A stretch of 64,000 nucleotides of DNA from an uncultured Gemmatimonadota bacterium (GCA_964518305.1 CAZFDK010000002.1:44392-108391), one strand, 5' to 3'; counted from the stretch's first letter, positions 12,845 through 34,031 are shown. Translations and numbers: made by a program. The notes: generated by a model from the sequence alone, not told the origin.

Positions 12845-13591
12845 TCACCGATGCTCAGGGTTCGGGTGATCGAAGCGGCAGCCCGCGTCCCACTCCGAGC
12901 GCTGATTCCCGTGGGCGGGAATCCCGCCCCGGTCCTTCAGCGTCCGGGCCAGGTGCATCAGGTTCCAGGTCATGAACGTGGTGTTGCGCTGCGTGAACTC
13001 GTTCTGCGGCCCGCCCGACCCCTCGTCGAGGTACGACGGACCGGGTCCGGCCTCCCCGATCCATCCGGCATCGGCCTGCGGCGGCACCGTGTAGCCGATG
13101 TGCTGGAGGGCGTATAGGGTGTTCATCGCGCAGTGCTTGATGCCGTCCTCGTTGCCGGTGAGGATGCACCCGGCGACCCGGTCGTAGTAGGCGTACTGGC
13201 CGCGGTCGTTGAGCTCGCCGGAGTATCCGTACAGCCGCTCGATCACCTTGCTGCACTCCGACGAGCGCTCGCCGAGCCAGATGGGCGAGCCCAGGATCAG
13301 GATCTCGGCGGCCATCACCTTCTCCTGGATCGCGGGCCAGTCGTCGCTCTCCCACCCGTGTTCGGTCATGTCCTTGTAGACGCCCGGGGCGATATCGTGG
13401 TCCACCGGGCGCAGCACCTCGACGTCCACGTCGTTCTCCTCCATGATGGCAGCGGAGACGTCGATCAGCCCCCGGGTGTGGGACTGCTCCGGCGACGGCT
13501 TCAGTGTACAGTTGAAAAAAAGAGCGCTCAGGTCCGAGTAGTCCTCGTCGCTCTCCTCGCACATCTGCTTCTGTCGTTCGCTGAGCGTCAT
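12845..13591 (-). CDS. Flavodoxin-like NAD(P)H-dependent FMN reductase family protein
   Basis: ALFFNCTLKPSP..AEILILGSPIWLGERSS..ILTGNEDG pattern. ATG at 13591. Confidence 0.55.
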   Translation of the reverse strand: MTLSERQKQMCEESDEDYSDLSALFFNCTLKPSPEQSHTRGLIDVSAAIMEENDVDVEVLRPVDHDIAPGVYKDMTEHGWESDDWPAIQEKVMAAEILILGSPIWLGERSSECSKVIERLYGYSGELNDRGQYAYYDRVAGCILTGNEDGIKHCAMNTLYALQHIGYTVPPQADAGWIGEAGPGPSYLDEGSGGPQNEFTQRNTTFMTWNLMHLARTLKDRGGIPAHGNQRSEWDAGCRFDHPNPEHR

Positions 13592-13873
13592 TCGTGGTTT
13601 CCCCCTGTCGTGGGATCGTGAATCCAGTCTGCTCGCGGGTGCGGATCGCGCCCCGCCAACTGCGCTCGCCCCGTCGGTGTTCCCGGCGGCGGGCCGGAAG
13701 CCCCGCGGCGCGGGGCGGCCCGGAACAACGGTGGGGAGAGCACGGTTGACGCCTCCCGCGGGGACAGGGGGCCGAGCCCGGGGCGATGCGCCCTTCTCCG
13801 CGACCGCCGACGAGCGAGCGCGCCAGAGTCTGAATCGGAAGACGGTCTGAATCTGGAGAAGGAGGACTGGGTC

Positions 13874-14533
13874 GTGACTCGACTGGAGGAGAAGCTCCGA
13901 CGGACACGGGAGAAGGCCGCCGAGCGGATGCCCGAATCCGCCCTCGAGGTGCTGGGCGCGCACAGCCGACACCTGGAGGAAGCGGACCGCGCCGCCGAGG
14001 CCGTGGGCGTCGGAGAGGCCGCGCCCGACTTCCGGCTCGCCTCTGCCGGCGGAGGCGAGGTACAGCTCTCCGAGCTCCTCGCACGGGGGCCGGTGATCCT
14101 GAACTTCTACCGCGGACGCTGGTGACCGTACTGCAACCTGGAGCTGGCAGCTCTGGAAAGCCGACGGCACGACTTCGAGGAGAGAGACGCCTCCCTCGTG
14201 GCGATCTCCCCGCAGACGCCGGACGAGAGCCGGCGGGCGGCCGACGACTTCGGTGTCCACTTCCCGCTCCTGGCCGACCGGGCGAACGAGACGGCGCGGG
14301 ACTACGGCCTCGTGTATCGCTGTCCCGACCGCATGAAGGAGATCTTCCTGGAGGTGCTGGAGACGGACCTCGCGGAGTACAACGGCGACGACTCGTGGAC
14401 GCTCCCCATGCCCGCCCGGTACGTGGTGGACGGCGACGGCATCGTCCGGTGGGCCAGCGTGAGCCCCGACTACACCCGGCGCCCGGACCCGGAGGAGACG
14501 CTGCAGGCGCTGGAGGAGCCGGGGGAAAGCTGA
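13874..14533 (+). CDS. Peroxiredoxin-like (AhpC/TSA, PRX_like2-type) protein with in-frame UGA; predicted selenoprotein
   Basis: ORFs 13874..14125 and 14198..14533 are in the same frame. Read-through of the TGA at 14123-14125 gives VILNFYRGRW-U-PYCNLELAAL..SLVAISPQTPDES, the family redox motif WCPYC with Sec in place of Cys. GTG start preceded by GAAGGAGGA. Confidence 0.7.
14138..14156 (+). promoter_or_regulatory. Candidate bacterial SECIS hairpin
   Basis: CTGGAGCT-GGC-AGCTCTGG forms 8 bp (including 2 G-U pairs) with an apical loop that starts with G. It begins 12 nt after the UGA. Confidence 0.45.
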
Positions 14534-14541
14534 CGGCCCCC

Positions 14542-15840
14542 ATGCGCTGCGCCGGAAGGGCCGGGATCGGACGCCCGCTCCGGCTGGCGCTGGCCTCGCT
14601 GCTCCTCGTCGCGTGGGGGTGCGGGGGATCGCCGCAGATTCCCGAGATCCCCTGGACTCCGCCGGCCGACGTCGAGCGGGGGCCCTACCTGCAGGCCGTG
14701 ACCGACAGCTCCGCCGTCGTCCGGTGGCGGGGCACGGAGCCGCCCCCCCGGCCGTCCTTCCGGTATCGGATCGTCCGGGACCGGGCGGGCGAGGCGGACA
14801 CGAGCTGGACCGCGGCCCGGGTGGAGATGCGCCGGGACGCGGGCCGGGAGGCGCGGCTGAAGGGGCTCCCGGCCGGTACGTCCGTCGTCTACGAGGTCGT
14901 GGAGAACGGCCGGGTCCTCGGCCCGTACCGCTTCCGGACCGCGCCGCCGCCGGAGCGACCCGACAGCGTCGTCCGGGTCCTGGCCTTCGGCGACTCCGGA
15001 TGGGGGTCCCGGGAGCAGGTCACCCTGGCGCGGCGCATGACCGGGCGCGACCGGGACCTGGCGCTGCACGTCGGCGACCTGGCCTACCCGTCGGGCTCCG
15101 CGCGGTCCCTCACGCTGCGACACTTCGACGTCTACCGGAAACTGCTCGCGGAAGTCCCCCTCTTCCCGGTGCCGGGCAACCACGACCTGCGCACCGACGG
15201 AGGCCGGCCCTACGACGTCGCCTTCACCTGGCCCCGGGACGGTGACGGGAGCCGGAAACGCCGCTACTACCGGTTTCGCTGGGGACACGCCCTCTTCGTG
15301 GCCCTGGACACAAGCACGCCGGCCCAGCTGGATTCGCTGCAGCGCGGGGAGGGCGCCCAGTACCGCTGGCTGCGGACGCATCTCCGGCGGGCCGGGAGCG
15401 ACTCCTCGGTGCGCTGGACCGTGGTCTACATGCACCACCCCCTGTACAGCAGCGCAGGAGGACTGTCGGGCCACGGGTCGAACCGGGCGCTGCGCGACGC
15501 CCTGCGTCCCCTGTTCGAGCGGGAAGGGGTCGACCTCGTGCTGGCGGGCCACGACCACCACTACGAGCGCACCCGCCCGCTTCTGAACGGTGAGCCGGTG
15601 CCCCCGGGCTGCGGCCCGGTCTACGTCGTGACCGGCGGCGGGGGAGCCAGCCGGCACGCGCGCACCGTGCGGGAGAGCGGACGGACGGCCGCCTCCTCGC
15701 GCCGCTACCACTTTCTCGAGCTGAGTCTGCGGCGGAACGGGGCCCAGGGGCGGGCAGTGGGCCTCGACGGTCGCCCCCTGGACCGCTTCCGGCTGCGGAC
15801 GCACGAGTCCGCGGCCCGGCCGGGCAGCTGCGCGGGATGA
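14542..15840 (+). CDS. Purple-acid-phosphatase-like metallophosphoesterase lipoprotein
   Basis: Lipobox LLLVAWGCGG, plus GDSG, HVGDLAY, GNHD, MHHPLYSS and GHDHHYER motifs. ATG at 14542. Confidence 0.75.
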   Translation: MRCAGRAGIGRPLRLALASLLLVAWGCGGSPQIPEIPWTPPADVERGPYLQAVTDSSAVVRWRGTEPPPRPSFRYRIVRDRAGEADTSWTAARVEMRRDAGREARLKGLPAGTSVVYEVVENGRVLGPYRFRTAPPPERPDSVVRVLAFGDSGWGSREQVTLARRMTGRDRDLALHVGDLAYPSGSARSLTLRHFDVYRKLLAEVPLFPVPGNHDLRTDGGRPYDVAFTWPRDGDGSRKRRYYRFRWGHALFVALDTSTPAQLDSLQRGEGAQYRWLRTHLRRAGSDSSVRWTVVYMHHPLYSSAGGLSGHGSNRALRDALRPLFEREGVDLVLAGHDHHYERTRPLLNGEPVPPGCGPVYVVTGGGGASRHARTVRESGRTAASSRRYHFLELSLRRNGAQGRAVGLDGRPLDRFRLRTHESAARPGSCAG

Positions 15841-15882
15841 GCGGGAGGACAGGGCCGGGGGGCCTCCCCCGGCCGGGCCGGA

Positions 15883-18800
15883 TCAGGACGTGTCCGCCCG
15901 GCGCACTTCCCCCGCCAGGTGGTCGAGGACCGCCTCCACCACGCCGAACTCCTCCTCCAGGAGCCGAAAGAAGTCCTGCTGGCCGAGCACCAGGAGACGG
16001 GACGGCTCGACGCACACGGCGGTGTAGTGACGGGGCTTTTTGTCCAGGAGGCTGAGGCTCCCGATTGATTCACCCTCCTCGGCCACGAAGGCGAGGCGGT
16101 CCTCCTGGCGCGCCTCCACCGCTCCCGACGCCACCACGTACAGCTCGGCCGAGAGCTCGCCGGCCGCGAACACCTCCTGCCCCTCGGCGAAGCTTCGCTC
16201 CTCCATCAGGGCGGCCAGGCCCGCCAGGACCTCCGTCCGGAGGTCGGCGAAGAGCTCGGTCTGCCGCAGGATCTCGGCCCGCTCGGTGATCTCCACGAAC
16301 GTCTCCTCGTCAAGGTCAGCCAGGAATTCGGCGCGTCGGCCGCCGCCCGGGCCCAGCAGGGTGTCGCCGACGGCGGTGATCGCGCCCTCGCAGGCGCGCG
16401 CCGCGCTCGCCATCTCCCCGCGCCGCAGTCGGGCGAGCCCCCTCACCCAGGAATCCGTCGGGTGGGAGGCGAGCTCCTCCAGGGCCCCGTGGGCGGAGGG
16501 GCGCTCGATGCCGTACCGCTCGAGGGCGGCCCGCTCCCGGTCCGCCGGTCCCCTGTCCGGATCCACCAGGGGCGCCAGCCTCCGGCGCTGCTCGATCGGC
16601 AGCGCGTTCTCGAGCAGCTCCATGCCCCGCTGGCGGTCCAGCGCGTCGTCGGAGGTCAGCGCCGTGTACGCGACGTACAGGTCCTCCAGCGAGTGCCGCA
16701 GCCCCAGCACCCGCAGGGCCCGCTCCACGGCTTCCCGCTCCCGCTGGCGCAGCGTGCGATCCAGCAGGTCCTCGCCGTCCCCCGCCGATTCGGGCCCCGC
16801 CCCCGTGGAGACGTCCCGGAGCAGGGCCCACCGGAAACCGGAGCGGAGCTCGCGCCGGAGCTGGGGCGCGAGGTCGAGGTGCTCGAACTCCAGCTCCCCG
16901 CGGTCCCGGCGAATCTTGTCCAGGGTCCGCAGGATCTGGTACCGAACGCCGTGCGAGTCGACCGCGTCCAGGGCGTCCCACAGGCTCTCCACCGTGGACT
17001 GTTCGGCCTGCTCGTAGAGGACGCGGGCCAGCCTCTCCCTGGCCGCGGCGGACAGGTCCCCGTCGCCCAGGCGGGACGCCAGCTCGGAGTGGATCGCCGG
17101 ACAGAGGCTCCTCAGCCCTGTCCGGGCGGCGTCCCGCGTCTCGGGGTCCTCCAGCCCCCGGACCAGATCGGGCGCCAGCCCGCGGGCGTCCAGCGTTCCC
17201 GCCGCCCGCACGGACCGGCGGCGCACTCGGGCGTCCGGGTCCCGCACCAGGCTCTCCAGGACCTCCTCGCCGCCCGGCGGCAGGCGGCGCGCCTCCGACA
17301 GCAGCTCGGCCGCTTCCTCCCGGTCTGCCGGCCGCTCGGAACGGGCGAGACGCCGCACCCGGGCCATGCCCTCTTCCCGCTGCTCCTCGCGCCCGTACCG
17401 GAGGAGACAGCCCACCGCCGCCGTCCGCACCTCCCGGCGGTCGTCCTCCAGCAGGGCCTCCATTTCCCGGGCCGGGCCCCGCGGGCCGTGGTCGCATACG
17501 AAGTGGACGGCCTCCGTCCGGACTTCGTGGGAGGAGTCCCGGAGCAGGCGCCGGGCTTCCGGCAGGGCCTCCTCGGAGCCGATCTCGTAGAGCAGGGAGA
17601 GGGCTCGGGCGCGAACGCGTCCGGACGAGTGCCCCAGCAGGTCCCGGAGCTCCCCCTCCAGCTCCGCCGTGGGCGACTGCTCCAGCAGCGACAGCGCGTA
17701 CAGGACCTCGCGCTCGTCATCGCTCGCCAGCGCACCGCGCAGCTGCTCAAGCGTCGTCGCGTCGAGCTGCTCCACGATCAGCTCGTCCAGGTCCACGTCC
17801 CGGACCCCGATCAGCCGCTTCACCGAGTCCCGGAATTCGTCCCGCATCCGTACCGTGGCCGCGATCCACGCGACGAGCAGCAGGATCGAGAGCACCGCCA
17901 CCCCCCGGATCCCGAATCCGAGCCAGTTCGTGACGCCGAGCAGCAGGATCCCGGCCACCCCCGTTCCCCCGCGGTAGATCCCGAGATCGATGAGAGGCTT
18001 CGCCCGATACTTCACCTCCGACGGGACGGGCAGGAAGAGCAGCTCGCGCGTGGACTGGTCCAGCGAGTAGCGGAGCGCTCCGTCGGATCCCTTGGCCAGG
18101 GCGGCAGCCAGGAGTCCCGGTACCGCCAGCACTCCGCCGGTGGCGGCGAGCAGGGTCACCGGGAGAACGAGGAGCGCCACGCCGATCCCGAAGCTCCTGA
18201 GCACGAACGAGGTGAGGAACACCTGGATGGCAACGGACGCGACGTTCTGCACCGCGAAGAATCGTCCGAAGAACGCCGTCTTCGCGTCCTCGCCGGCCAC
18301 GTACATCTCCACGGCCCGGTTGAACTGCCAGTCGACGAGCGTGCTCACGACGATGGTCAGCCCGAGGATCAGGGCGACCGTCCTCAGGTGGGACGACTCC
18401 CGAACCAGGGTCAGTGCGTCGGCGGAGACGTCGTCCACGAGGCGAGCGTCCCCGCCCCCCCGGAGGCGGGGAAGAAGGAGGCTCACGATGAGCGCACAGG
18501 CCGAGAGGATCGCCGCAGCGACGAGGAGGAGAGCCTCGCTCCCCACCAGATCCGCCGCCAGGCCCGAGACGGCGCTCCCGGCCACGCCGCCGACCACGAG
18601 CCCGACGCCGATGGGTCCGAAGAGCCGCTTCGCCTGGCGGGTGGAGAAGAGCCTGTTGGCCACCAGCCAGAACTGGCTCATCAGGAAGAGCGGGTAGACC
18701 TTGCCGAACACGTAGAAGGCACCGGACGCCACGGTCCCCCCCACCCGGAGCCAGGCCCAGAACCCCACCAGCGACGCCCCCATGAGCCCGAAGGTGGTCA

Positions 18801-19071
18801 TCAGGAGCCGACCGGGCGCCGTGTCCTCCACGCGGCGCGAGTAGAGCATCACCGCGACGCTGACCACCACGGCCGTGAGGACGTAGACCCAGGGGAGATT
18901 CTCCGCGCCGACCCGGTCGATGAACACCGAGTTCCGGACCGGCTTGATGACGTAGTGGGAGCTGAGGGCCAGAAGGCCGTAGAGGAACATCAGCCCCGCC
19001 GGGACCAGCTCCTCCCGGCGCACGTCGGTGACGCTCCGCCACCACTCGGCCAGCGTGCCCCGAACGCTCAC
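15883..19071 (-). CDS. Fusion protein: Npt1/Npt2 (TLC ATP/ADP-translocase-like) MFS domain, HEAT repeats and a C-terminal cyclic-nucleotide-binding domain
   Basis: The N-terminal ~430 aa are polytopic (REELVPAGLMFLYGLLALSSHYVIKPVRNSVF). The middle has repeated ..D.VR..A...L.. HEAT units. The C-terminus is FAEGQEVFAAGELSAELYVVASGAVEA..GESIGSLSLLD (CAP-type cNMP fold). Confidence 0.65.
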   Translation of the reverse strand: MSVRGTLAEWWRSVTDVRREELVPAGLMFLYGLLALSSHYVIKPVRNSVFIDRVGAENLPWVYVLTAVVVSVAVMLYSRRVEDTAPGRLLMTTFGLMGASLVGFWAWLRVGGTVASGAFYVFGKVYPLFLMSQFWLVANRLFSTRQAKRLFGPIGVGLVVGGVAGSAVSGLAADLVGSEALLLVAAAILSACALIVSLLLPRLRGGGDARLVDDVSADALTLVRESSHLRTVALILGLTIVVSTLVDWQFNRAVEMYVAGEDAKTAFFGRFFAVQNVASVAIQVFLTSFVLRSFGIGVALLVLPVTLLAATGGVLAVPGLLAAALAKGSDGALRYSLDQSTRELLFLPVPSEVKYRAKPLIDLGIYRGGTGVAGILLLGVTNWLGFGIRGVAVLSILLLVAWIAATVRMRDEFRDSVKRLIGVRDVDLDELIVEQLDATTLEQLRGALASDDEREVLYALSLLEQSPTAELEGELRDLLGHSSGRVRARALSLLYEIGSEEALPEARRLLRDSSHEVRTEAVHFVCDHGPRGPAREMEALLEDDRREVRTAAVGCLLRYGREEQREEGMARVRRLARSERPADREEAAELLSEARRLPPGGEEVLESLVRDPDARVRRRSVRAAGTLDARGLAPDLVRGLEDPETRDAARTGLRSLCPAIHSELASRLGDGDLSAAARERLARVLYEQAEQSTVESLWDALDAVDSHGVRYQILRTLDKIRRDRGELEFEHLDLAPQLRRELRSGFRWALLRDVSTGAGPESAGDGEDLLDRTLRQREREAVERALRVLGLRHSLEDLYVAYTALTSDDALDRQRGMELLENALPIEQRRRLAPLVDPDRGPADRERAALERYGIERPSAHGALEELASHPTDSWVRGLARLRRGEMASAARACEGAITAVGDTLLGPGGGRRAEFLADLDEETFVEITERAEILRQTELFADLRTEVLAGLAALMEERSFAEGQEVFAAGELSAELYVVASGAVEARQEDRLAFVAEEGESIGSLSLLDKKPRHYTAVCVEPSRLLVLGQQDFFRLLEEEFGVVEAVLDHLAGEVRRADTS

Positions 19072-19131
19072 GGCTCGCTGCGCGCTCTCGTCACCGGCGC
19101 CTCGGAGACACCCTCGCCCGCCCGGACCGGC

Positions 19132-19980
19132 TCATCCGGACAGGCTGAGCGCCAGGACCAGAGCGCCCACAGCGGCGAACACTCCTCCGAGCACCTTCTC
19201 CATGAGATCCGCCGGAAGCCACTTGCCCACGCGGCTTCCGAGGGTGCTCCCGACGAGGACCCCGGGCACGCTCCATCCGACGACCCTCCAGGCGGGAGAG
19301 GCCGCCGTCGCGTGGATGCCGGCCGCTGCGACGGCGGTGATGGCCAGGACGAACACGCTCGTGGCCACGGCCACACGGGGCGGAACGCGACAGCGCACCA
19401 CCAGCTGGGTGGTCGAGATCTCCGGGAGCCCGGCGCTCACGAGACCCGTGAACGCTCCTCCGATCGCCGCCAGCAGGACCCCCGGGGGACGCCAGCACGT
19501 CGGGTACTCGAAGTGCTCGCCGTCCGCCGACTCGATCACCGTGGTCCCCTTGCCCCGCGACCTCTCGTCGATCACCTCACTGGCCTCCTCGCCGGGCTCG
19601 CACGCCTCCGGATTCTTCACGAAGAGCAGGAACCCCGCCAGCACCACGAGCGCGCCCCCGAAGACGCGCTTCATCACCACGTCCGGCACCTGGTGCGCCA
19701 CCAGGGCCCCCGCGACCGCGAACGGAACCGCGCCCAGCAGCAGCCACCGGGCCGTCGCGTAGTCCACCAGGTTCTGGGCCACGTAGGATCGGAGCCCGTT
19801 CCCCATCCCGAAGGCCTCCGTCAGGAGGCCCGCGCCCACGGCCTGCGCCGGGGTCAGGCCCAGCGCCAGCATGAAGAAGGGGCTGAAGAAGAGGGCCCCG
19901 GACACGCCGGAGCCCACCGCCACGGTGGCGAACGCGATCGAGGTGGGGAAGACCCACCAGAGGCTCAGGAGCTCCGACAT
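19132..19980 (-). CDS. TauE/SafE-family anion exporter
   Basis: Polytopic protein with GSGVSGALFFSPFFMLALGL..GGAFTGLVSAGLPEISTTQL. The ATG at 19980 overlaps the pgl stop. Confidence 0.65.
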   Translation of the reverse strand: MSELLSLWWVFPTSIAFATVAVGSGVSGALFFSPFFMLALGLTPAQAVGAGLLTEAFGMGNGLRSYVAQNLVDYATARWLLLGAVPFAVAGALVAHQVPDVVMKRVFGGALVVLAGFLLFVKNPEACEPGEEASEVIDERSRGKGTTVIESADGEHFEYPTCWRPPGVLLAAIGGAFTGLVSAGLPEISTTQLVVRCRVPPRVAVATSVFVLAITAVAAAGIHATAASPAWRVVGWSVPGVLVGSTLGSRVGKWLPADLMEKVLGGVFAAVGALVLALSLSG

Positions 19981-20738
19981 CACCCGCTCCCGTCCTCCCG
20001 GACCTCGCGGGCCCGGTCGGCCGCAGGCCCGTCCAGCATCCACGTGCCGCCGCGCGCCAGGCGCGACGGGCAGTCCCGAACCGGGTCCGGCTCGGCGAGC
20101 GCCCGTGCCACCGGCTCCGCCTTCTCGCGCCCGGTGGCCAGCACCACGATCCTGCGGGCGGCCCCGACCACGGGGGGCGTCACGGTGAGCCGCTGCACGG
20201 GCGGCTCGGGCGCCTCCACGGGGACCACCCGCCGGTCGCGCTCGGCCAGGGCCGGCGACCCGGGGAACAGGGAGGCGGTGTGGCCGTCCTCGCCGATCCC
20301 CAGGAGGAGGAGATCGAGCTCTCCGGGCAGCACGCCGGCGTACTCCTCGGCGGCCCTCCACCGGTCGGGCCGCTCGGCCTCCATGCGGTGCACCCGCGCC
20401 GCCGGGACGTCGACATGCTCCAGGAGCGTCTTCCGCGCCATCCGGTAGTTGCTCTCCGGGTGATCGGGAGGCACGCCGCGCTCGTCACCGAAGTAGACGT
20501 GCACCGACGACCAGTCGAGCGAGCCCCTCGCGCGAAGCTCACGGTAGGCGGGCCCGGGCGTGGAGCCGCCGGCCAGGGCCAGGGCGCACCTCCCCGCGCG
20601 ATCGACGGCCCGTCGCATCTCGCCGGCGATCAGGCTCGCCGCCGTCTCGGCCCACCTTTCCGGGGACCCGACCAGCACCTCGCCTCGCTCCCGGAGCGTG
20701 CCCCCGTCGCCGGCCGCCGCCATCAGATCGCCTTCCAC
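19980..20738 (-). CDS. pgl: 6-phosphogluconolactonase
   Basis: LALAGGSTPGPAYREL..VYFGDERGVPPDHPESNY..LLLGIGEDGHTASLFPG. An alternative ATG at 20723 abuts the zwf stop. Confidence 0.85.
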   Translation of the reverse strand: MEGDLMAAAGDGGTLRERGEVLVGSPERWAETAASLIAGEMRRAVDRAGRCALALAGGSTPGPAYRELRARGSLDWSSVHVYFGDERGVPPDHPESNYRMARKTLLEHVDVPAARVHRMEAERPDRWRAAEEYAGVLPGELDLLLLGIGEDGHTASLFPGSPALAERDRRVVPVEAPEPPVQRLTVTPPVVGAARRIVVLATGREKAEPVARALAEPDPVRDCPSRLARGGTWMLDGPAADRAREVREDGSG

Positions 20739-22315
20739 GACCGCCCGTCCCGCTCCAGCAGGGCCTCCGCTCCGTCCGGTCCCCAGCTGCCGGCGCGATA
20801 GTTCGGAAGATCAGCGTGAGGGGACGACTCCCAGCTGTCCACCAGCGGATCCACGATGGACCACGCGTGCTCCACCCAGTCCCTGCGGGCGAAGAGCGTC
20901 TGGTCGCCCTGCATGGCGTCCATGAGCAGCCAGGCGTAGGCGGACGGAGGCTCCTCGATGCCGAAGGCCCGGGCGTACTCGAACTCCATCCGCACGGGCT
21001 CCAGGGCCACCCTGGGGCCGGGGCGCTTGGCGGCGAACCGCTGGACGATGCCCTCCTCCGGCTGCAGCCGGAAGGCGAGCACGTTCCGCTCGACGTCGTC
21101 CTGTCCCGGAAACATGCTGTGGGGGGTGGGCCGGAAGTGGACCGCGACCTCGGTGAGCTTCCGAGGGAGTCGCTTCCCGGTGCGCAGGTAGAAGGGCACG
21201 CCGGACCACCGCCAGTTGTCCACGCGCAGCTCCAGGGCGGCGAAGGTCGGCGTCGTGGACTCCGGCTCCACGCCCTCCTCGCCCCGGTACCCCGGCACCT
21301 CCGTCCCGTCGATCCGGCCGGGGCCGTACTGACCCGCCACGAAGTCCCGCTCGGGTTCGACCGGCTCGACGGCCTGCAGCACCTTCGCCGTCTCGTCCCG
21401 GAGCGAGCTGCCGAGGCAGCGCACAGGGGGCTCGATGGCCGTGATGCAGAGCAGCTGCAGGAGATGGTTCTGGACCATGTCCCGGACCACGCCCGTCTCC
21501 TCGTAGAAGCCCGCGCGGTCCCCGATCCCGACGTCCTCGGCCGCCGTGATCTGGACGTGGTCGATGTAGTTCCGGTTCCAGATCGGCTCGTACCCGGGGT
21601 TGGCGAACCGGAAGACGAGCATGTTCTGGACGGTCTCCTTGCCGAGATAGTGGTCGATCCGGTAGATCTCGTCCTCCGCGAAGACGTCCTGCAGCTCCCG
21701 GTTCAGCCGGACGGCGGACGCCCGGTCCCGCCCGAAGGGCTTCTCGATCACCAGCCGGCGCCAGCCCTCCTCGCTCTGTGTCAGGCCCGCCCGCTCCAGC
21801 CGACCGGGAATCTCCGTGAAGAAGCTCGGAGGGACGGCCAGGTGGAAGAGGACGTTGTCCGGGATCCCGTGTCTCTCCCGGAGCCGCTCCACCTCCCGCG
21901 CCAGGTCCGCGTAGTCGCCCCCCGGCGGAGAGCGGACGTCGGCCGGGCAGTAATGGAGCCGCCGGGCGAACGACTCCCACCGGGAGCCGTCGACCTCGGA
22001 GCGGCCGAGCACGGCCTCGCGCATCCGGTCGCGAAACGTCGCGTCGTCCCACTCCGTCCGCGCCGTCCCCAGCACCGCGAACCGCCCGGGCAGGAGCTCC
22101 TGGCAGTGCAGCTCGTACAGGGAGGGGACGAGGTCCTTCGCGGTCAGGTCGCCGGAGGCGCCGAAGATCACCATCACGCAGGGGTCGGCCGCCTCCCCGG
22201 GCTCGAGGCCCGCCTCCCGGCAGCGGACTCCCACCCGCACGGCTTCCTCCCCGGTCCCGTCACGCGCATCCTCCGGGGACCGCCTGTCCTCGTCCAAATC
22301 GCCCGCCCCGCTCAC
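20723..22315 (-). CDS. zwf: Glucose-6-phosphate dehydrogenase
   Basis: VIFGASGDLTAKDL, EKPFGRD, RIDHYLGKE and NHLLQLL motifs. The GTG at 22315 overlaps the gnd stop (GTGA). Confidence 0.85.
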   Translation of the reverse strand: MSGAGDLDEDRRSPEDARDGTGEEAVRVGVRCREAGLEPGEAADPCVMVIFGASGDLTAKDLVPSLYELHCQELLPGRFAVLGTARTEWDDATFRDRMREAVLGRSEVDGSRWESFARRLHYCPADVRSPPGGDYADLAREVERLRERHGIPDNVLFHLAVPPSFFTEIPGRLERAGLTQSEEGWRRLVIEKPFGRDRASAVRLNRELQDVFAEDEIYRIDHYLGKETVQNMLVFRFANPGYEPIWNRNYIDHVQITAAEDVGIGDRAGFYEETGVVRDMVQNHLLQLLCITAIEPPVRCLGSSLRDETAKVLQAVEPVEPERDFVAGQYGPGRIDGTEVPGYRGEEGVEPESTTPTFAALELRVDNWRWSGVPFYLRTGKRLPRKLTEVAVHFRPTPHSMFPGQDDVERNVLAFRLQPEEGIVQRFAAKRPGPRVALEPVRMEFEYARAFGIEEPPSAYAWLLMDAMQGDQTLFARRDWVEHAWSIVDPLVDSWESSPHADLPNYRAGSWGPDGAEALLERDGRSWKAI

Positions 22316-23226
22316 GACCCGTCCTCCTCCTCTTCTCTGACCCCGTGGCCCCCGAACTGGTCGCGGAGGGCCGCGATCACCTTGGCCGAGAAGCGCTCCT
22401 CCATCCGGGAGTCGAAGCGCTCGTAGAGCGAGTTCGTCAGGCTGCCCACCGGGATGGCGTTCTCCACGGCGTACTGGACCGTCCAGCGGCCCATGCCGGA
22501 GTCGTCCACGTAGCCCGCGATGCGCTCGAGCTCGTTGCCCTCTTCGTCGAAGGCGTCGGACAGGAGCTCCAGGAGCCACGACCGGACCACGGCCCCGTGC
22601 TGCCACAGCTCAGCCACCTGCTGCAGGTCGACGTCGAACTCGGAGCGCTCCAGGCACTCGAAGCCCTCCCCCAGGGCCTGCAGCATGCCGTACTCGATGC
22701 CGTTGTGGATCATCTTCACGAAGTGGCCCGCGCCGTTCTCCCCCACATGCGCGTACCCGCCCTCGGGCGCCAGACTGCGGAACGCCGGCTCGAGGTCGCG
22801 AAACGCCTCCTCCGGGCCGCCGATCATCATGCAGTAGCCCTCCTCCAGCCCCCATACCCCGCCGCTCACCCCGGCGTCCAGGAACCGTATGTCCTCCTGC
22901 TCGCAGCGACCCGCCGCGGCCATCGAGTCGGTGAACCGGGAGTTGCCGCCGTCGACGATAGTGTCGCCGGGATCCATGAGCCCGATGAGCTCGTCGATGG
23001 TCTCGTCGGTGGGCTCCCCGTGGGGCACCATCACCCACACGGACCGCGGGGGCTCCAGCCGGCCGATCAGGTCGGGGACCGAATCGGCGGCGGCGCCCCC
23101 CGCCTCCTCCGCGTCGCGTCGCCGGTCCGCGTCCAGGTCGAATCCGACGACCTGGTGGCCGTCGCGCACGAGCCGCCGGAGCATGTTGCCGCCCATCTTC
23201 CCCAGGCCGACGATTCCGATCTCCAT
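22312..23226 (-). CDS. gnd: 6-phosphogluconate dehydrogenase, decarboxylating (short form)
   Basis: MEIGIVGLGKMGGNM..DGGNS..GAGHFVKMIHNGIEYG. ATG at 23226 preceded by AAAGGGAGGAT. Confidence 0.85.
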   Translation of the reverse strand: MEIGIVGLGKMGGNMLRRLVRDGHQVVGFDLDADRRRDAEEAGGAAADSVPDLIGRLEPPRSVWVMVPHGEPTDETIDELIGLMDPGDTIVDGGNSRFTDSMAAAGRCEQEDIRFLDAGVSGGVWGLEEGYCMMIGGPEEAFRDLEPAFRSLAPEGGYAHVGENGAGHFVKMIHNGIEYGMLQALGEGFECLERSEFDVDLQQVAELWQHGAVVRSWLLELLSDAFDEEGNELERIAGYVDDSGMGRWTVQYAVENAIPVGSLTNSLYERFDSRMEERFSAKVIAALRDQFGGHGVREEEEDGS

Positions 23227-23243
23227 GAGGATCCTCCCTTTCC

Positions 23244-23284
23244 GTGTGTATATTCGGTGTGTGTATTCGGTTGTGTGTATTCGG
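23244..23284. repeat. Three tandem copies of a ~13-14 nt unit, (T)TGTGTGTAT(AT)TCGG
   Basis: GTGTGTATATTCGG / TGTGTGTATTCGG / TTGTGTGTATTCGG, read directly, immediately upstream of the gnd RBS. Confidence 0.85.
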
Positions 23285-23596
23285 CCCGAACTGCTCCCGC
23301 CCGATCCGAGCCGGAGGACTTCACAGCCGTCGCGACGCCACCGCCCGACGCGCGTCTCACCAATCGACGGCGCCCGGCTCGGGTTCCGGCAGCGAGCCAC
23401 GCCCGGGCCTCCGCGCCTTCGGCTTCGGGCTCGTTCCCCGTCCCGGAACGCCTGCCCGCCTCCTGCCATTGTGGAAGCGAGCCCGGAGGAAATCGAACAG
23501 AAGCCCGCACTCGACAAAGGGAGACACGAACTTGATCGACACGGTCGTGGAGGCCTTCAGTGACGACGTCGTGCGTGCGCTCGGGGGAGAATCCTG

Positions 23597-29507: not shown

Positions 29508-31217
29508 TCAGTGGCGGAGGCCGGAGACCCGGTAACCGCGCTCCGGCCCCTGCCAGCTGAGCCAGACCACGGCGCGCCGTCCGCGTCCATCGGGCCGCTC
29601 GGCCCGCAGCTCCAGCCGGGCCAGCGCCTCCTCGTCGGACACCGCCTCGGCGTCCGCGAGCCCGGCGGTCGTGGAGAGCGGCACCGTGACGGACTGTCGC
29701 CGTCCCTCGCGGCCTCCCGTCTCGCCCGCCGCCTCGAGCCCCGCGGCCTCGTGGACGAGGCGCCACCGGTAGGTGGTCTCCTCCGCCCCCCAGGGTCCGT
29801 CGACGAGGCCCAGGTCCCGGAACGAGATCCGCAGCTCGTCCCCGGGGGCAGGCGAGGCCTCCACCTCGGGGTCCTCCACGGGGGTCACCGTCCCGTACCA
29901 GTACTCCACGACCCGGTCGCGCCGGTACTCCAGGATGTCGACCAGCGTGTCCGTGGCCGCCTCGGTGGGCAGACGCCCCGCCTCCACCGCGGCCTGGATC
30001 TGTTCGTCGGTGAAGGTGGCGACCAGCTTCGCCCCCCAGTAGCCGTCAGCGGGTGTCATCGCGTGATACGCCTCGTTGGGCCAGTTGGGCTTCCATTTCC
30101 CGGGGCGGAAGCTCTGCACCGGCAGCCACCCCACCGACGGGTAGATCGGAGCCCACTCCTCCCCCTCCCATCCCGCGCGGTAGAAGCCCAGCGTGACGAG
30201 ACGCTTCGTGGCGGCCCAGAAGTCTACCTGGTACTCGCGACCGTCGCGGGGAGAGTGAGGACGAATGCTCCCGCTGCCGAGCGAGGAGCCCATGTCGATC
30301 AGGTAGTGCCGGAGATACCCGGGGTCCACGTACGAGGCGAGCGTGTTCGCCCATCGGGTGTCCACGTTGTTCAGCCAGGCGGAGACCACGAACAGCCCCC
30401 GCAGTTCCCGCCGGTGCTGGTGGGTGTAGTAGTCGTTCGGATCGTCGCTCCGGGTGCCGCGGAAGTGCCACGGGCCCTTGGGGGTCCCCTCGACGAACCG
30501 GCTGCACACGGCCAGGTACCGACCGTTCGGGAGCTGGCCCGTGAGGTCCAGGAGCTCCCTCAGGTCCTCGCGCGTCATGGGCCGCTCGCCCCTCCGGGTC
30601 GTCACCCGCGCCTCCTCGGAGATCCGCAGGTTCTCCGGCCGGAACGAGACGAGAATGGTCTCGGGCACGTGGTACCCCGCCGCCCAGTAGAACCGGGAGG
30701 CGATCACCTCCGCCGAGGTGGCGAGATGGAAATGCTCCTCGGGGTCGAACTTGAGGATGTACCGCCTCCCCCGTGAGTCCTCCACCGTGAGTCCCGGCGT
30801 GACGCCCTGCGTCTTCGCGTCCAGCACCGTGATCCCCTCGCTCGGGTCCGGCCGGCTGGCGCCGGGCCCCCGGGCCACCTCCTCCGGGCTCATCCGCTCG
30901 CGGTCGTTTCGGTGCTCGAACCAGCTCGAGTTCACCACGTCGTCGAACCGCGTCAGATTCACAGCCGGGTGCTTCTCGCCGACCAGCTCGCGAAAGGAAG
31001 CGCCGTGGCCGATGCCCCGTGTGACGCGATCGAACTTGTCGTCGATCGACCCGCCACCCCGGGCGGCTGGCTCGGCCACGGCCGTCGTGTCCCCGTACGG
31101 GACAGGCTCGGGGCGCAGCGGCACCGGCTGCCTCCCGGCGCAGGCCGACGCGGCCAGGATCGTCCCGGTGGCCGCCAGCAGCGGCAGGAACCGCGCGACC
31201 GCCGGAAAGGCGGACAT
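29508..31217 (-). CDS. Secreted lipoprotein of unknown function with protein/lipid-kinase-like motifs
   Basis: Lipobox GTILAASACAG, plus RYILKFDP, LNNVDTRWANTL and YLIDMGSSLG motifs. ATG at 31217. Confidence 0.5.
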   Translation of the reverse strand: MSAFPAVARFLPLLAATGTILAASACAGRQPVPLRPEPVPYGDTTAVAEPAARGGGSIDDKFDRVTRGIGHGASFRELVGEKHPAVNLTRFDDVVNSSWFEHRNDRERMSPEEVARGPGASRPDPSEGITVLDAKTQGVTPGLTVEDSRGRRYILKFDPEEHFHLATSAEVIASRFYWAAGYHVPETILVSFRPENLRISEEARVTTRRGERPMTREDLRELLDLTGQLPNGRYLAVCSRFVEGTPKGPWHFRGTRSDDPNDYYTHQHRRELRGLFVVSAWLNNVDTRWANTLASYVDPGYLRHYLIDMGSSLGSGSIRPHSPRDGREYQVDFWAATKRLVTLGFYRAGWEGEEWAPIYPSVGWLPVQSFRPGKWKPNWPNEAYHAMTPADGYWGAKLVATFTDEQIQAAVEAGRLPTEAATDTLVDILEYRRDRVVEYWYGTVTPVEDPEVEASPAPGDELRISFRDLGLVDGPWGAEETTYRWRLVHEAAGLEAAGETGGREGRRQSVTVPLSTTAGLADAEAVSDEEALARLELRAERPDGRGRRAVVWLSWQGPERGYRVSGLRH

Positions 31218-31249
31218 CCACGCGCTGATCTCGGGACGGAATCGCCCGT

Positions 31250-32590
31250 TCACGGCTGGACCTCCACGCTCACCTGCACCCTCACTCCCTCGTCCCCGTC
31301 GGCGACGAACCAGCTGGCCAGCGGACCCGCCCGGCTGGCGACCCGCATGCCGAAGCCGTAGGAGGGTCGCCAGTCCGAGGAGGAGACCTCGGACAGCCGA
31401 CGGGCCACCATGCCTTCCTCGAGGAACAGGAAGGCGCCGAGACGGACGCTCTCGCGCGAATCGCGCCACAGCTCGTACCGGTATTCGGCGACGCCGGCGG
31501 CGAGATCGTGGCCCCGGAAGCGGTAGTCCGTATAGGCCCGGGCTCCGAGCTCGTCGCCCAGGCCCGCCAGGTGCGTGAAGGGCACGCCCCGTCCGCCGTC
31601 GGACCGGTTGAACTCGAGGCGTCCGCGGAGGACCAGGCTCTGCCGCATATCGATCGGAAGGTAGCCGTCCCCCCGCAGGCGGATGCGGTGGAAATCGGCC
31701 TCCGTCCCGGTCACCCCGCGGAACAGGGTCGACTCCGCCCCCAGCTCGACGCCCCGGGTCTGGAACAGACGCCTCCGGGTGAAGTCGAGCGCCAGCGAAC
31801 CGCCGGCGCGGACGAACTCCTTCGTGTCGCCGAGTCCGAACAGCTGTTCGGACGTGTACCGGGTCGTGATGTCCGGAACGGCCGGGTCGCCGCCGTCGGC
31901 CGCCTGGTTCTCCTCGTATCCACCCCGGACCCCCAGCCGGATCCAGGACCGCCGCAGCAGACCGAGCTCCGCGTCGCCCCCCCACTGGTCCCACTGGTAG
32001 TCCACGGCGTCCGAAGCGGGCGACGTGGGGCCGACCCCCCAGAACCGGGGCTGTGCCCACCGTCGGAACCAGCCCCGGACGACGAACCGCTCGCCGCTCT
32101 CCGGCAGCTGGAGCCATGCCTCGTGGCGCTGTGATCCGCTCGACGCGTACGCCGACCGGAGGTGAAGGGGCGCCCAGCGGTTCAGGTGGACCTTCGCAGC
32201 CGGCCCGCTCCGGGGCCCGACGGAGCCGACGCCGGGCGAGAGCCCCCAGGCCCGGAGATCGCGATAGGCCACCCTCACCGGCGAGGGAGGCCCCTCTCGC
32301 CCCACCAGGCTAAGGACACTCTGGGTACCCTCCCCCAGGAGCCGGAGGGGGAAGGTGGCCACGGTCCACGGGAAGGTCACCACGTCCACCCAGTCGGTGG
32401 GGGGTTCGGAGGGAGGACGGGCCGCAGTGTCTCGATCCACCGACTGCGCGCGAGCCAGCCCGGCCGGGACCGCGAGGGTCAGGACGGTCGCCAGGACGAG
32501 CGCTCCGCTGAGGCCCGGTTGGCTCCGGCAGCCGGGCCAGCGGGCCGCGCCGCCCGTCCCGGTCGTCTCCCCGTCACTCCCATCAGTCAT
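31250..32590 (-). CDS. Outer-membrane beta-barrel protein (Omp85/D15-like)
   Basis: Signal peptide ..ALVLATVLTLAVPAGLARA-QS, then alternating beta-strand-like segments rich in aromatic residues and Gly to the C-terminus. The ATG at 32590 overlaps the upstream MFS stop by 8 nt. Confidence 0.45.
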   Translation of the reverse strand: MTDGSDGETTGTGGAARWPGCRSQPGLSGALVLATVLTLAVPAGLARAQSVDRDTAARPPSEPPTDWVDVVTFPWTVATFPLRLLGEGTQSVLSLVGREGPPSPVRVAYRDLRAWGLSPGVGSVGPRSGPAAKVHLNRWAPLHLRSAYASSGSQRHEAWLQLPESGERFVVRGWFRRWAQPRFWGVGPTSPASDAVDYQWDQWGGDAELGLLRRSWIRLGVRGGYEENQAADGGDPAVPDITTRYTSEQLFGLGDTKEFVRAGGSLALDFTRRRLFQTRGVELGAESTLFRGVTGTEADFHRIRLRGDGYLPIDMRQSLVLRGRLEFNRSDGGRGVPFTHLAGLGDELGARAYTDYRFRGHDLAAGVAEYRYELWRDSRESVRLGAFLFLEEGMVARRLSEVSSSDWRPSYGFGMRVASRAGPLASWFVADGDEGVRVQVSVEVQP

Positions 32591-34031
32591 CGCTCGAATC
32601 CTGCTCCTCCTGCTCCGGATCCGCCGCTCCCGCCCCGGCTCCTTCTCCGACGTGGTCTTCGTTCGTCTCGGCGGTCATCCCGTCGCTCCGAGCCTCGAAC
32701 TCCTTCCCCAGGTAGCGGACGACCAGTATCCAGCTGCCGATGACCAGCAGCGAGGCGAGCGAGAACCAGCGGACGTGGATCACGGTCAGTGCGCTCAGGG
32801 CCAGATTCAGCCCCACGGCCACCACCTTCCCGAACCGCTGCACGAACATGTCGATGAACGCCTTGGCCTTGTATTTGGCGTCCCGGGAGGTGGGGGTGTA
32901 GAGGGCCTCCTTCGCGGACTGGTTGATCGAATAGTTGAGCGCGTTGTCGCCCACCCGCATGAAGGAGGCGAGGGCGAGCGACGGAACGACCAGGAACCCG
33001 ACGGAGCCCAGCATGGCCACGGCGGGCAGGAACAGGAGCCCGGCCCCGACGCCGAGGTTCCGAAGCACGTAGCTCGTGCCGAACAGCTGGACCCCGATCG
33101 AGACCAGCCCCGTGATCTGACCGATCCGGCCGAAGAACGCGTCCTTGGCCGCCCCCCCGGTGATCTGCTGCTCGACGATCACGCCGAGCTGGAAGTTCAT
33201 GATGTTCGAGACGAGTTCGTAGAGCCCGATCACCGCCGTGATGCCCAGCAGGTACTTCGACGCCAGCACCAGCTTCGCCCCCTCGATGGCGGCCCCGGCG
33301 CCCGGCTCCTCCGCCACCTTCGACTCGTCGTCGCAGTCCTCTTCCTCCTCCGGGCAGCAGGGCTCGTCCCGCTCTTCCTCCTCTCCGCGTCGCTCCCGGG
33401 CCCGCGCGTCGATCCAGTAGGCCAGGAGCACGATCACGGCCACCGGCACGAGCAATCCGACCAGCAGCCAGGCGCGCCCCACGTCCTGCACGAGGCTCGT
33501 GACGACAGTCGCGCCCACGAAGCCCCCGACCACGCCTCCCAGCCCCACGATCCCGTACAGCCTCTCGGCCTCCTCGGACGTCGTGATGTCGTTCGAAAAG
33601 GCCCAGAAGGTGGCCACCATGACCGTCGTCCAGATGTCGCCCGTCACGTACAGGGCCCACACCAGGGGCTCCGACGGAGCATGGATCCGGGTGGCGAACA
33701 GGAGGAACAGGGCCCCGAAGGCCAGGCTGAAGACGAGTATCACTCGCTGCCGCGGCAGCTTCCGGACCAGGACGGTGAACCCCACCACGACCGCGTAGGC
33801 CACGACCATGTTCAGGACCTTGGCGACCTCCTCGGCCTGCGCCCCGCTGAGCTGCCATCCGAAGAGCACCACCGGATGGTTGGCGAAGTAGTCCAGAAGC
33901 AGGCCCCGCTTCATCGGCTTCAGGACCCAGAAGACGGCGATCACCAGGAAGAAGAAGAGCGCCAGGCCCAGGGCGCGGGGCCACTCCCCTCTCCGGATGT
34001 CGAAAAAACGCTCTTTCAGTCGCTCGAGCAT
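32583..34031 (-). CDS. Npt1/Npt2 (TLC ATP/ADP-translocase-like) family MFS transporter
   Basis: MLERLKERFFDIRRGEWPRALGLALFFFLVIAVFWVLKPMKRGL. About 12 predicted TM segments. The central loop is EEEERDEPCCPEEEEDCDDE. Confidence 0.6.
   Translation of the reverse strand: MLERLKERFFDIRRGEWPRALGLALFFFLVIAVFWVLKPMKRGLLLDYFANHPVVLFGWQLSGAQAEEVAKVLNMVVAYAVVVGFTVLVRKLPRQRVILVFSLAFGALFLLFATRIHAPSEPLVWALYVTGDIWTTVMVATFWAFSNDITTSEEAERLYGIVGLGGVVGGFVGATVVTSLVQDVGRAWLLVGLLVPVAVIVLLAYWIDARARERRGEEEERDEPCCPEEEEDCDDESKVAEEPGAGAAIEGAKLVLASKYLLGITAVIGLYELVSNIMNFQLGVIVEQQITGGAAKDAFFGRIGQITGLVSIGVQLFGTSYVLRNLGVGAGLLFLPAVAMLGSVGFLVVPSLALASFMRVGDNALNYSINQSAKEALYTPTSRDAKYKAKAFIDMFVQRFGKVVAVGLNLALSALTVIHVRWFSLASLLVIGSWILVVRYLGKEFEARSDGMTAETNEDHVGEGAGAGAADPEQEEQDSSDD

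Follow-up and report, generated by a model that had tools for sequence, protein, structure and literature searches.

A 64,000-nucleotide stretch of DNA from an uncultured Gemmatimonadota bacterium (GCA_964518305.1 CAZFDK010000002.1:44392-108391; hereafter the window) contains, at positions 15883-19071, a gene for a three-part fusion protein (P0002), in which a membrane carrier domain of the NTT/TLC family is joined to a solenoid of HEAT-type repeats and a C-terminal domain with the fold of cyclic nucleotide-binding domains (CNBD). Comparing sequences and genomes, we arrive at a reading to which we give about an even chance: the protein would be a carrier under the control of a ligand and would serve an envelope module by transporting a nucleotide-like or phosphorylated solute; its regulator is probably neither cyclic AMP (cAMP) nor cyclic GMP (cGMP). 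A simple cAMP-gated ATP importer is unlikely because the pocket of the sensor and the cavity of the carrier each depart from the textbook versions. The locus is a clean case in which an ATP/ADP substrate and control by cAMP or cGMP both look wrong on residue-level and genome-level evidence, and its conserved neighbours, an exported kinase-like lipoprotein, an outer-membrane barrel and a phosphoesterase, suggest a concrete role in the envelope. The residue-level, genome-level and envelope-linkage arguments are circumstantial and serve as useful leads.

Architecture and distribution of the fusion protein

The gene is an uninterrupted open reading frame (ORF) of 1062 amino acids on the minus strand with a GTG start, and its GC content at the three codon positions (0.77/0.47/0.93) is the coding signature of the host genome (about 70% GC). 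A sequence-only reading of the window had described a single ORF of this extent that combines a TLC/Npt-like transporter, HEAT repeats and a cyclic nucleotide monophosphate (cNMP)-binding domain. The ORF call and the codon-position GC bear out the first point, with the strand now given as minus, and Pfam together with an AlphaFold2 model bears out the second. The parts of the gene are as follows, with the evidence for each in brackets:

15883..19071, minus strand: whole gene, NTT-HEAT-cNBD fusion protein P0002 (ORF, Pfam, orthologs, codon GC, AlphaFold2 model)
17806..19071, minus strand: residues 1-422, MFS domain with 12 transmembrane (TM) helices, NTT/TLC family (Pfam TLC, PDB profile search, Foldseek, residue mapping)
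17758..17805, minus strand: residues 423-438, flexible linker (pLDDT below 50 at 424-437)
16264..17757, minus strand: residues 439-936, cytoplasmic HEAT-type alpha-solenoid of about 30 helices, location as predicted (HEAT_2/HEAT, alphaRep and PP2A-A matches, DSSP)
15886..16263, minus strand: residues 937-1062, CNBD-fold domain, a beta-roll of CAP/PKA type (PF00027; PDB 2pqq, PKA-R, Crp; Foldseek)
16018..16074, minus strand: residues 1000-1018, equivalent of the phosphate-binding cassette, GESIGSLSLLDKKPRHYTA (alignments to known CNBDs and orthologs)

Pfam assigned TLC (PF03219, 37.7 bits, cut-off 21), HEAT_2 with 59 bits together with HEAT (families PF13646/PF02985), and cNMP_binding (PF00027, 56.2 bits, cut-off 27.5) at residues 958-1040. 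The AlphaFold2 model, built from a 50-sequence family alignment, reached a mean pLDDT of 88.9 and a pTM of 0.80. It shows 12 long TM helices within residues 19-421, a disordered linker at 424-437, about 30 paired helices at 439-936 forming a tandem helix-turn-helix solenoid, and a beta-roll with flanking helices at 937-1062. Searching the model against the PDB with Foldseek gave AtNTT1 and Chlamydia pneumoniae NTT1 (CpNTT1) as the three best matches (TMt 0.67-0.73), followed by CNBDs of the CRP/GlxR/PKA type (root-mean-square deviation about 2 Å) and by the HEAT solenoids of alphaRep and PP2A-A. MFS and NTT proteins have a cytoplasmic N-terminus, and since the number of TM helices is 12, the HEAT-CNBD arm lies on the same side as the N-terminus; in the model the arm is cytoplasmic. 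The identity and architecture of the protein, an NTT-fold carrier with a HEAT solenoid and a CNBD-fold sensor, are near certain.

Using a search of a collection of 5.8 billion proteins we found about 65 full-length proteins with 38-57% identity, all of them composed of TLC, HEAT and cNMP_binding and most of them from metagenome-assembled genomes of Gemmatimonadota. The closest relatives (60 or more best matches) all share the fused three-domain form, and shorter TLC-HEAT proteins without a CNBD appear lower in the same match list. A mis-assembled fusion could be rejected, as the orthologs come from about 65 independent assemblies and some of them lie on closed chromosomes, one of 4.46 Mb; the fusion is genuine. 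Related loci, 262 in species-representative genomes, are distributed over Gemmatimonadota, Acidobacteriota (Vicinamibacterales, Thermoanaerobaculia, Terriglobia), Polyangiaceae and others, some again on closed chromosomes, and 30 of 31 relatives of the host genome carry at least one NTT-type gene. The two genus-mates (G001, G002) have no close ortholog of the fusion, their best matches showing 28-31% identity and belonging to the type of a second NTT-HEAT locus described below, and the nearest orthologs (50% identity) are found in other genera, so that its presence may vary among members of the genus. The same two genomes also lack the kinase-like lipoprotein.

The sequence-only reading had called the architecture uncharacterised, which holds for its function: our literature search found no later functional study of NTT-HEAT proteins. 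The architecture itself was described in 2017 by Major, Embley and Williams (Genome Biol Evol, PMC5381601), who found NTT-HEAT fusions to be monophyletic and widespread and reported both three-domain NTT-HEAT-cNBD fusions and NTT-HEAT genes with a cNBD gene a few nucleotides downstream. They stated the function to be unknown and speculated that cAMP tunes ATP uptake. Where orthologs already bear a database name, it is 'Npt1/Npt2 family nucleotide transporter', 'AAA family ATP:ADP antiporter' or 'cyclic nucleotide-binding domain-containing protein'. The architecture is therefore not new, and the fusion is a further member of a known, experimentally uncharacterised family.

Sensor pocket and carrier cavity

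A cassette glutamic acid contacts the ribose 2'-OH of the bound cyclic nucleotide, and a cassette arginine contacts its cyclic phosphate. We set the cassette positions by HMMER alignment to 2pqq and PKG. The canonical cassette FGE(L/A)AL…PR(S/T)A(T/S)V aligns with IGSLSLLDKKPRHYTAV in the fusion, which places Ser1005 at the position of the glutamic acid (G1004-S1005), keeps the arginine as R1014 and replaces the +2 alanine by Tyr1016. The 'GE' of the stretch GESIGSLSLL, quoted in the sequence-only reading, sits three residues upstream of the true position and does not represent the cassette Gly-Glu. Among 43 close orthologs the glutamic acid position is occupied by Asp (19), Ser (7), Thr (6) or Ala (3) and by Glu only once, and the arginine position by Arg (13), Thr (13), Ala (9), Ser (3) and others; none of the 43 has Glu and Arg together. 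In the fusion the glutamic acid is absent and the arginine present, the latter not conserved among the orthologs. The full FGE…PRSA cassette is kept only in distant relatives such as P0120. As the cassette helix is otherwise well conserved in the orthologs (G.VG.L.LLDG.P..Y.A.A), the sensor pocket of this clade looks functional but re-tuned. With cNMP receptors of the CAP/PKA/HCN class (GlxR, M. tuberculosis CRP, PKA-R) the domain shares the beta-roll and C-helix and the glycines of the roll; the cassette arginine is there in this particular protein. Unlike them it has Ser for Glu and Tyr for the +2 Ala and is joined to neither a DNA-binding nor a kinase partner domain, and its orthologs carry Thr, Ala or Ser at the arginine position.

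The genomes point in the same direction. A search for class III cyclases (PF00211), not extended to classes I, V and VI, detected none in the host genome, which is 90% complete, and none in either genus-mate; only 17 of 31 relatives contain a PF00211 cyclase. At least eight genomes without such a cyclase, among them a closed one of 98% completeness, have full-length three-domain genes (28-50% identity), and three of these genomes (G020, G026, G027) are also without CYTH. The host genome encodes only two CNBDs, that of the fusion and a 138-amino acid protein at a second NTT-HEAT locus (contig C10:17463-21281 of the host genome G000; locus L087:3464-7281). There the 138-amino acid CNBD gene overlaps the end of the NTT-HEAT gene (949 amino acids) by 10 bp and is followed by a stand-alone response-regulator receiver domain; the cassette of this second CNBD (FGTWALVDDRPSLVEA) contains neither Glu nor Arg. 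Both CNBDs of the host thus accompany NTT-HEAT proteins, neither is canonical, and no source of cNMP is evident in the genome. That cAMP or cGMP gates the carrier directly is doubtful in this lineage, to judge from the sequences, because the cassette glutamic acid is absent, the arginine is not conserved and no class III cyclase is detectable in genome or genus.

Turning to the membrane domain, a profile built from the TM domains of 15 family members was searched against 177,635 distinct PDB sequences (E<=0.01) and matched only two, CpNTT1 (9j3n, 6e-44) and AtNTT1 (9j3j, 2.5e-33), with nearly the whole domain aligned. A generic MFS carrier was rejected on this basis, and as the matches are limited to NTT structures the domain is specifically NTT-like, in line with the affiliation first assigned to it. 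The TM10-11 signature [KR]Y[SA]Lx[DQ]ST[KR]E..Y.P is kept, and the intramembrane charges K43, R46, R149, D247, R334, D338, R342, E343, K358 and D362 are each present in at least 44 of 50 sequences. AtNTT1 (9j3j/9j3l/9j3m) and CpNTT1 (9j3n/9j3o) share with the fusion the 12-TM MFS fold, the signature motif and the basic residues of TM1. The fusion differs from them by an identity of only about 17% and by a cytoplasmic extension of about 640 amino acids absent from the canonical proteins; its host belongs to a free-living soil or sediment phylum, whereas the characterised NTT are from an intracellular parasite or a plastid. Four charged residues of AtNTT1 (K155, E245, E385 and K527) are strongly conserved in NTT and important for transport (PMC4256464, citing Trentmann 2000), and K527 has been linked to the transport of NTP rather than NDP (PMC4256464). 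We located them in the 9j3j chain as K71, E161, E301 and K443, with a single offset of +84 and agreement of all residue types, and mapped them onto the fusion. K155 corresponds to Y63 (Tyr in 48 of 50 relatives), E245 to K124, a charge reversal (Lys in 42 of 50), and K527 to T370 (Thr in 41 of 50). Only E385 is kept, conservatively, as D247 (Asp in 45 and Glu in 4 of the 50), so that one of the four survives. The stand-alone homologue P0003 has K, D, N and K at these positions and the second NTT-HEAT protein of the host Y, D, D and K. TIGR00769, the model for NTP/NDP exchange transporters, gave 35.3 bits for the fusion, below its cut-off of 387.2. This remodelling of charged residues argues for a changed substrate or mechanism, and with three of the four critical charges different, nucleotide transport by the carrier domain is uncertain on sequence grounds.

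These results bear directly on the classical reading, raised for this gene before and suggested as a role for such fusions by Major et al. (PMC5381601), in which an exchanger of ATP/ADP or other NTP is gated by cAMP or cGMP at the CNBD via the HEAT arm. It draws on the homology and fold of the carrier, on a CNBD fold scoring above the Pfam threshold with R1014 in place, and on the canonical cassette of P0120 and other distant members, from which the ancestral fusion probably bound cNMP. A further argument is the sperm Na+/H+ exchanger SLC9C1 (PDB 8pd2 and others), found among the fold matches, which is likewise a secondary transporter with an attached cytoplasmic C-terminal CNBD and is a functional precedent for the control of a carrier by a nucleotide sensor. 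SLC9C1 differs in its unrelated transporter fold (NhaA-type plus a voltage sensor), its canonical cNMP pocket and its eukaryotic origin, and it lacks a HEAT arm; over the whole chain the structures match poorly (TM about 0.09). Set against the classical reading are the replacement of Glu by Ser and the missing Glu-Arg pair in all close orthologs, the occurrence of the fusion in genomes without class III cyclase and partly without CYTH, the non-conservative exchange of K155, E245 and the NTP-linked K527, and the low TIGR00769 score. We consider this reading unlikely; its regulatory half, the direct gating by cAMP or cGMP claimed by the sequence-only reading, is weakly supported, with the CNBD fold and R1014 in its favour and the absent cassette glutamic acid and class III cyclase against it.

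Linkage to envelope genes

The genes of the window that matter for the genomic context of the fusion are:

14542..15840, plus strand: exported purple-acid-phosphatase-like metallophosphoesterase, convergent with the fusion and 43 bp from its stop; homolog at the same place in locus L013
19132..19959, minus strand: TauE/SafE-family membrane protein, last of a gnd-zwf-pgl-tauE chain, 60-nt gap to the fusion start; start coordinate approximate
32583..34031, minus strand: stand-alone NTT/TLC homologue P0003, 482 amino acids, TLC 86.6 bits, first gene of an operon
31250..32590, minus strand: Omp85-like outer-membrane barrel, overlapping P0003 by 8 bp
29508..31253, minus strand: kinase-like lipoprotein P0126, weak HipA_C match, signal peptide with Cys

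The signal peptide of the phosphoesterase ends in LLLVAWGC, which marks the protein as exported and probably lipid-anchored. P0003, a stand-alone relative whose presence had already been read from the sequence and is confirmed here, forms together with the barrel and the lipoprotein an overlapping three-gene operon (29508-34031, minus strand). The same envelope proteins recur next to fusion genes elsewhere. In loci L004 and L005 the unannotated neighbours of the fusion turned out to be homologs of the barrel (40% and 29% identity) and of lipoprotein P0126 (52% and 44% identity). Of 19 distinct Gemmatimonadota loci whose flanks reach 3 kb or more, about 12 have the lipoprotein downstream of the fusion, mostly in convergent orientation; in the window the phosphoesterase occupies this position. 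The gap between the two genes is 34-164 bp in six loci from five genomes (L005, L007, L017, L019, L021, L035), where the barrel lies behind the lipoprotein, and in L013 the phosphoesterase comes first, 88 bp from the fusion, with the lipoprotein after it. A set of 30 relatives served as an independent sample: of the 25 genomes that have the lipoprotein, 8 carry it no more than about 4 kb from an NTT-type gene, for which our own rough estimate of the chance expectation is about 1%. Phyletic co-occurrence of fusion ortholog and lipoprotein was not significant, as the lipoprotein is present in all six ortholog genomes and also in 25 of 31 relatives. Linkage to an exported set of lipoprotein, barrel and phosphoesterase thus recurs among NTT-family carriers that differ in architecture.

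Six genomes (G019, G020, G022, G024, G028 and G029) carry the lipoprotein 2-4 kb downstream of, and co-directional with, an NTT-type gene with an open frame of about 760-800 amino acids, which would be a third NTT architecture of intermediate length.

Upstream of the fusion, also on the minus strand, gnd, zwf and pgl of the oxidative pentose-phosphate pathway form a chain with tauE (19132-23517). This arrangement would fit a carrier of a non-nucleotide solute outside the envelope module, for example a sugar-phosphate, a sulfur oxyanion or another anion tied to the gnd-zwf-pgl-tauE genes, with the HEAT-CNBD part acting as a metabolic sensor. The fusion follows tauE on the same strand, and our scan of 15600-19400 found no promoters and a single chance-level terminator inside the gene, none being predicted in the 60-nt gap; tauE is found upstream of the fusion once more, in L017, and the remodelled charges argue for a changed substrate. 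The pentose-phosphate linkage itself is, however, largely not conserved, being absent from four homolog loci with 7-kb flanks, which speaks against a functional link to the chain; the recurrent neighbours are lipoprotein, barrel and phosphoesterase, and the membrane domain matches NTT and no other MFS family. For these reasons we regard such a carrier as quite unlikely.

Proposed role

The protein is a 12-helix carrier of the inner membrane with the NTT fold (TLC, TCDB 2.A.12), connected at its cytoplasmic C-terminus to a rigid HEAT solenoid and, through it, to the CNBD-fold sensor. According to the model we favour, the carrier would serve the exported module of lipoprotein, barrel and phosphoesterase by passing a nucleotide-like or phosphorylated solute through the inner membrane, either supplying a phosphoryl donor to the periplasm or retrieving products, and classical ATP/ADP exchange would not be required. 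The HEAT-CNBD arm would throttle the carrier in response to a cytoplasmic ligand, which in this Gemmatimonadota clade is probably not cAMP or cGMP. Substrate, direction of transport and ligand are hypotheses.

Several observations weigh against this model. The changes at the four charged positions of the fusion are no proof that nucleotide transport has been lost, since three of these positions are altered in the microsporidian transporters ThNTT1 and ThNTT3 as well (PMC4256464). R1014 is retained, which makes weak cNMP binding by the fusion possible, and the host genome encodes one CYTH protein that is conceivably a class IV cyclase, even if no curated class IV cyclase model matched it. Three-domain loci of Acidobacteriota have none of the lipoprotein, barrel or phosphoesterase genes within 3 kb. 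The envelope genes are convergent with the fusion and not co-transcribed with it, and in the window the lipoprotein and barrel lie about 10 kb away with an NTT of their own (P0003); common descent, and not selection, could account for part of the synteny. Finally, we found no data in the literature on transport, binding or expression for any member of the family.

A more specific version of the proposed role, which we put forward as tentative and rather unlikely in its entirety, is that the fusions are regulated gates of envelope phosphorylation. They would let a donor (ATP or a relative) out or spent products back in, the exported kinase-like lipoprotein with its Omp85-like barrel would use the donor, the exported phosphoesterase would counter it, and the CNBD would have been re-tuned to another cytoplasmic ligand, for example a non-cyclic nucleotide that reports the energy state. 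The least probable of the readings considered is a transceptor or scaffold in which a non-transporting NTT fold would detect a ligand in the periplasm or the membrane, the HEAT arm would bring in partners for signalling (response regulators, for example) and the CNBD fold would be structural: HEAT repeats are scaffolds for protein-protein interaction (PMC5381601), a receiver domain follows the CNBD gene at the second locus and key transport residues are changed, but the highly conserved TM domain with its signature motifs and many intramembrane charges fits a working cavity and no signalling partner adjoins the fusion gene.

Compared to the fusions of Major et al. (PMC5381601), the protein has the same domain order and is likewise bacterial and from a free-living organism; their split form, in which the cNBD has a gene of its own close behind the NTT-HEAT gene, is also present in the host genome. 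Their emphasis was on Cyanobacteria, Chlamydiae, Deltaproteobacteria and oomycetes, with cAMP control of ATP uptake as the proposal. This Gemmatimonadota clade differs from that picture by a degenerate cassette, the frequent lack of a cyclase, three changed charges and the conserved link to envelope enzymes. If it is true that periplasmic enzymes have their nucleotides supplied or recycled by the carrier, this would change the picture of the periplasm as a place without nucleotide-driven chemistry, and a gate of envelope phosphorylation would give a nucleotide economy to a compartment known from textbooks as ATP-free. A conventional cNMP-gated exchanger, should the protein prove to be one instead, would have no characterised precedent among bacterial carriers.

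Beyond the phosphoesterase gene the window contains a short ORF (14198-14533, plus strand) that matches only positions 64-123 of the 124 positions of the AhpC/TSA profile, i.e. its C-terminal half, and may, from this partial match, encode a peroxiredoxin in truncated form. On the minus strand, an FMN_red-domain gene (12845-14260) overlaps this ORF with its 5' end.

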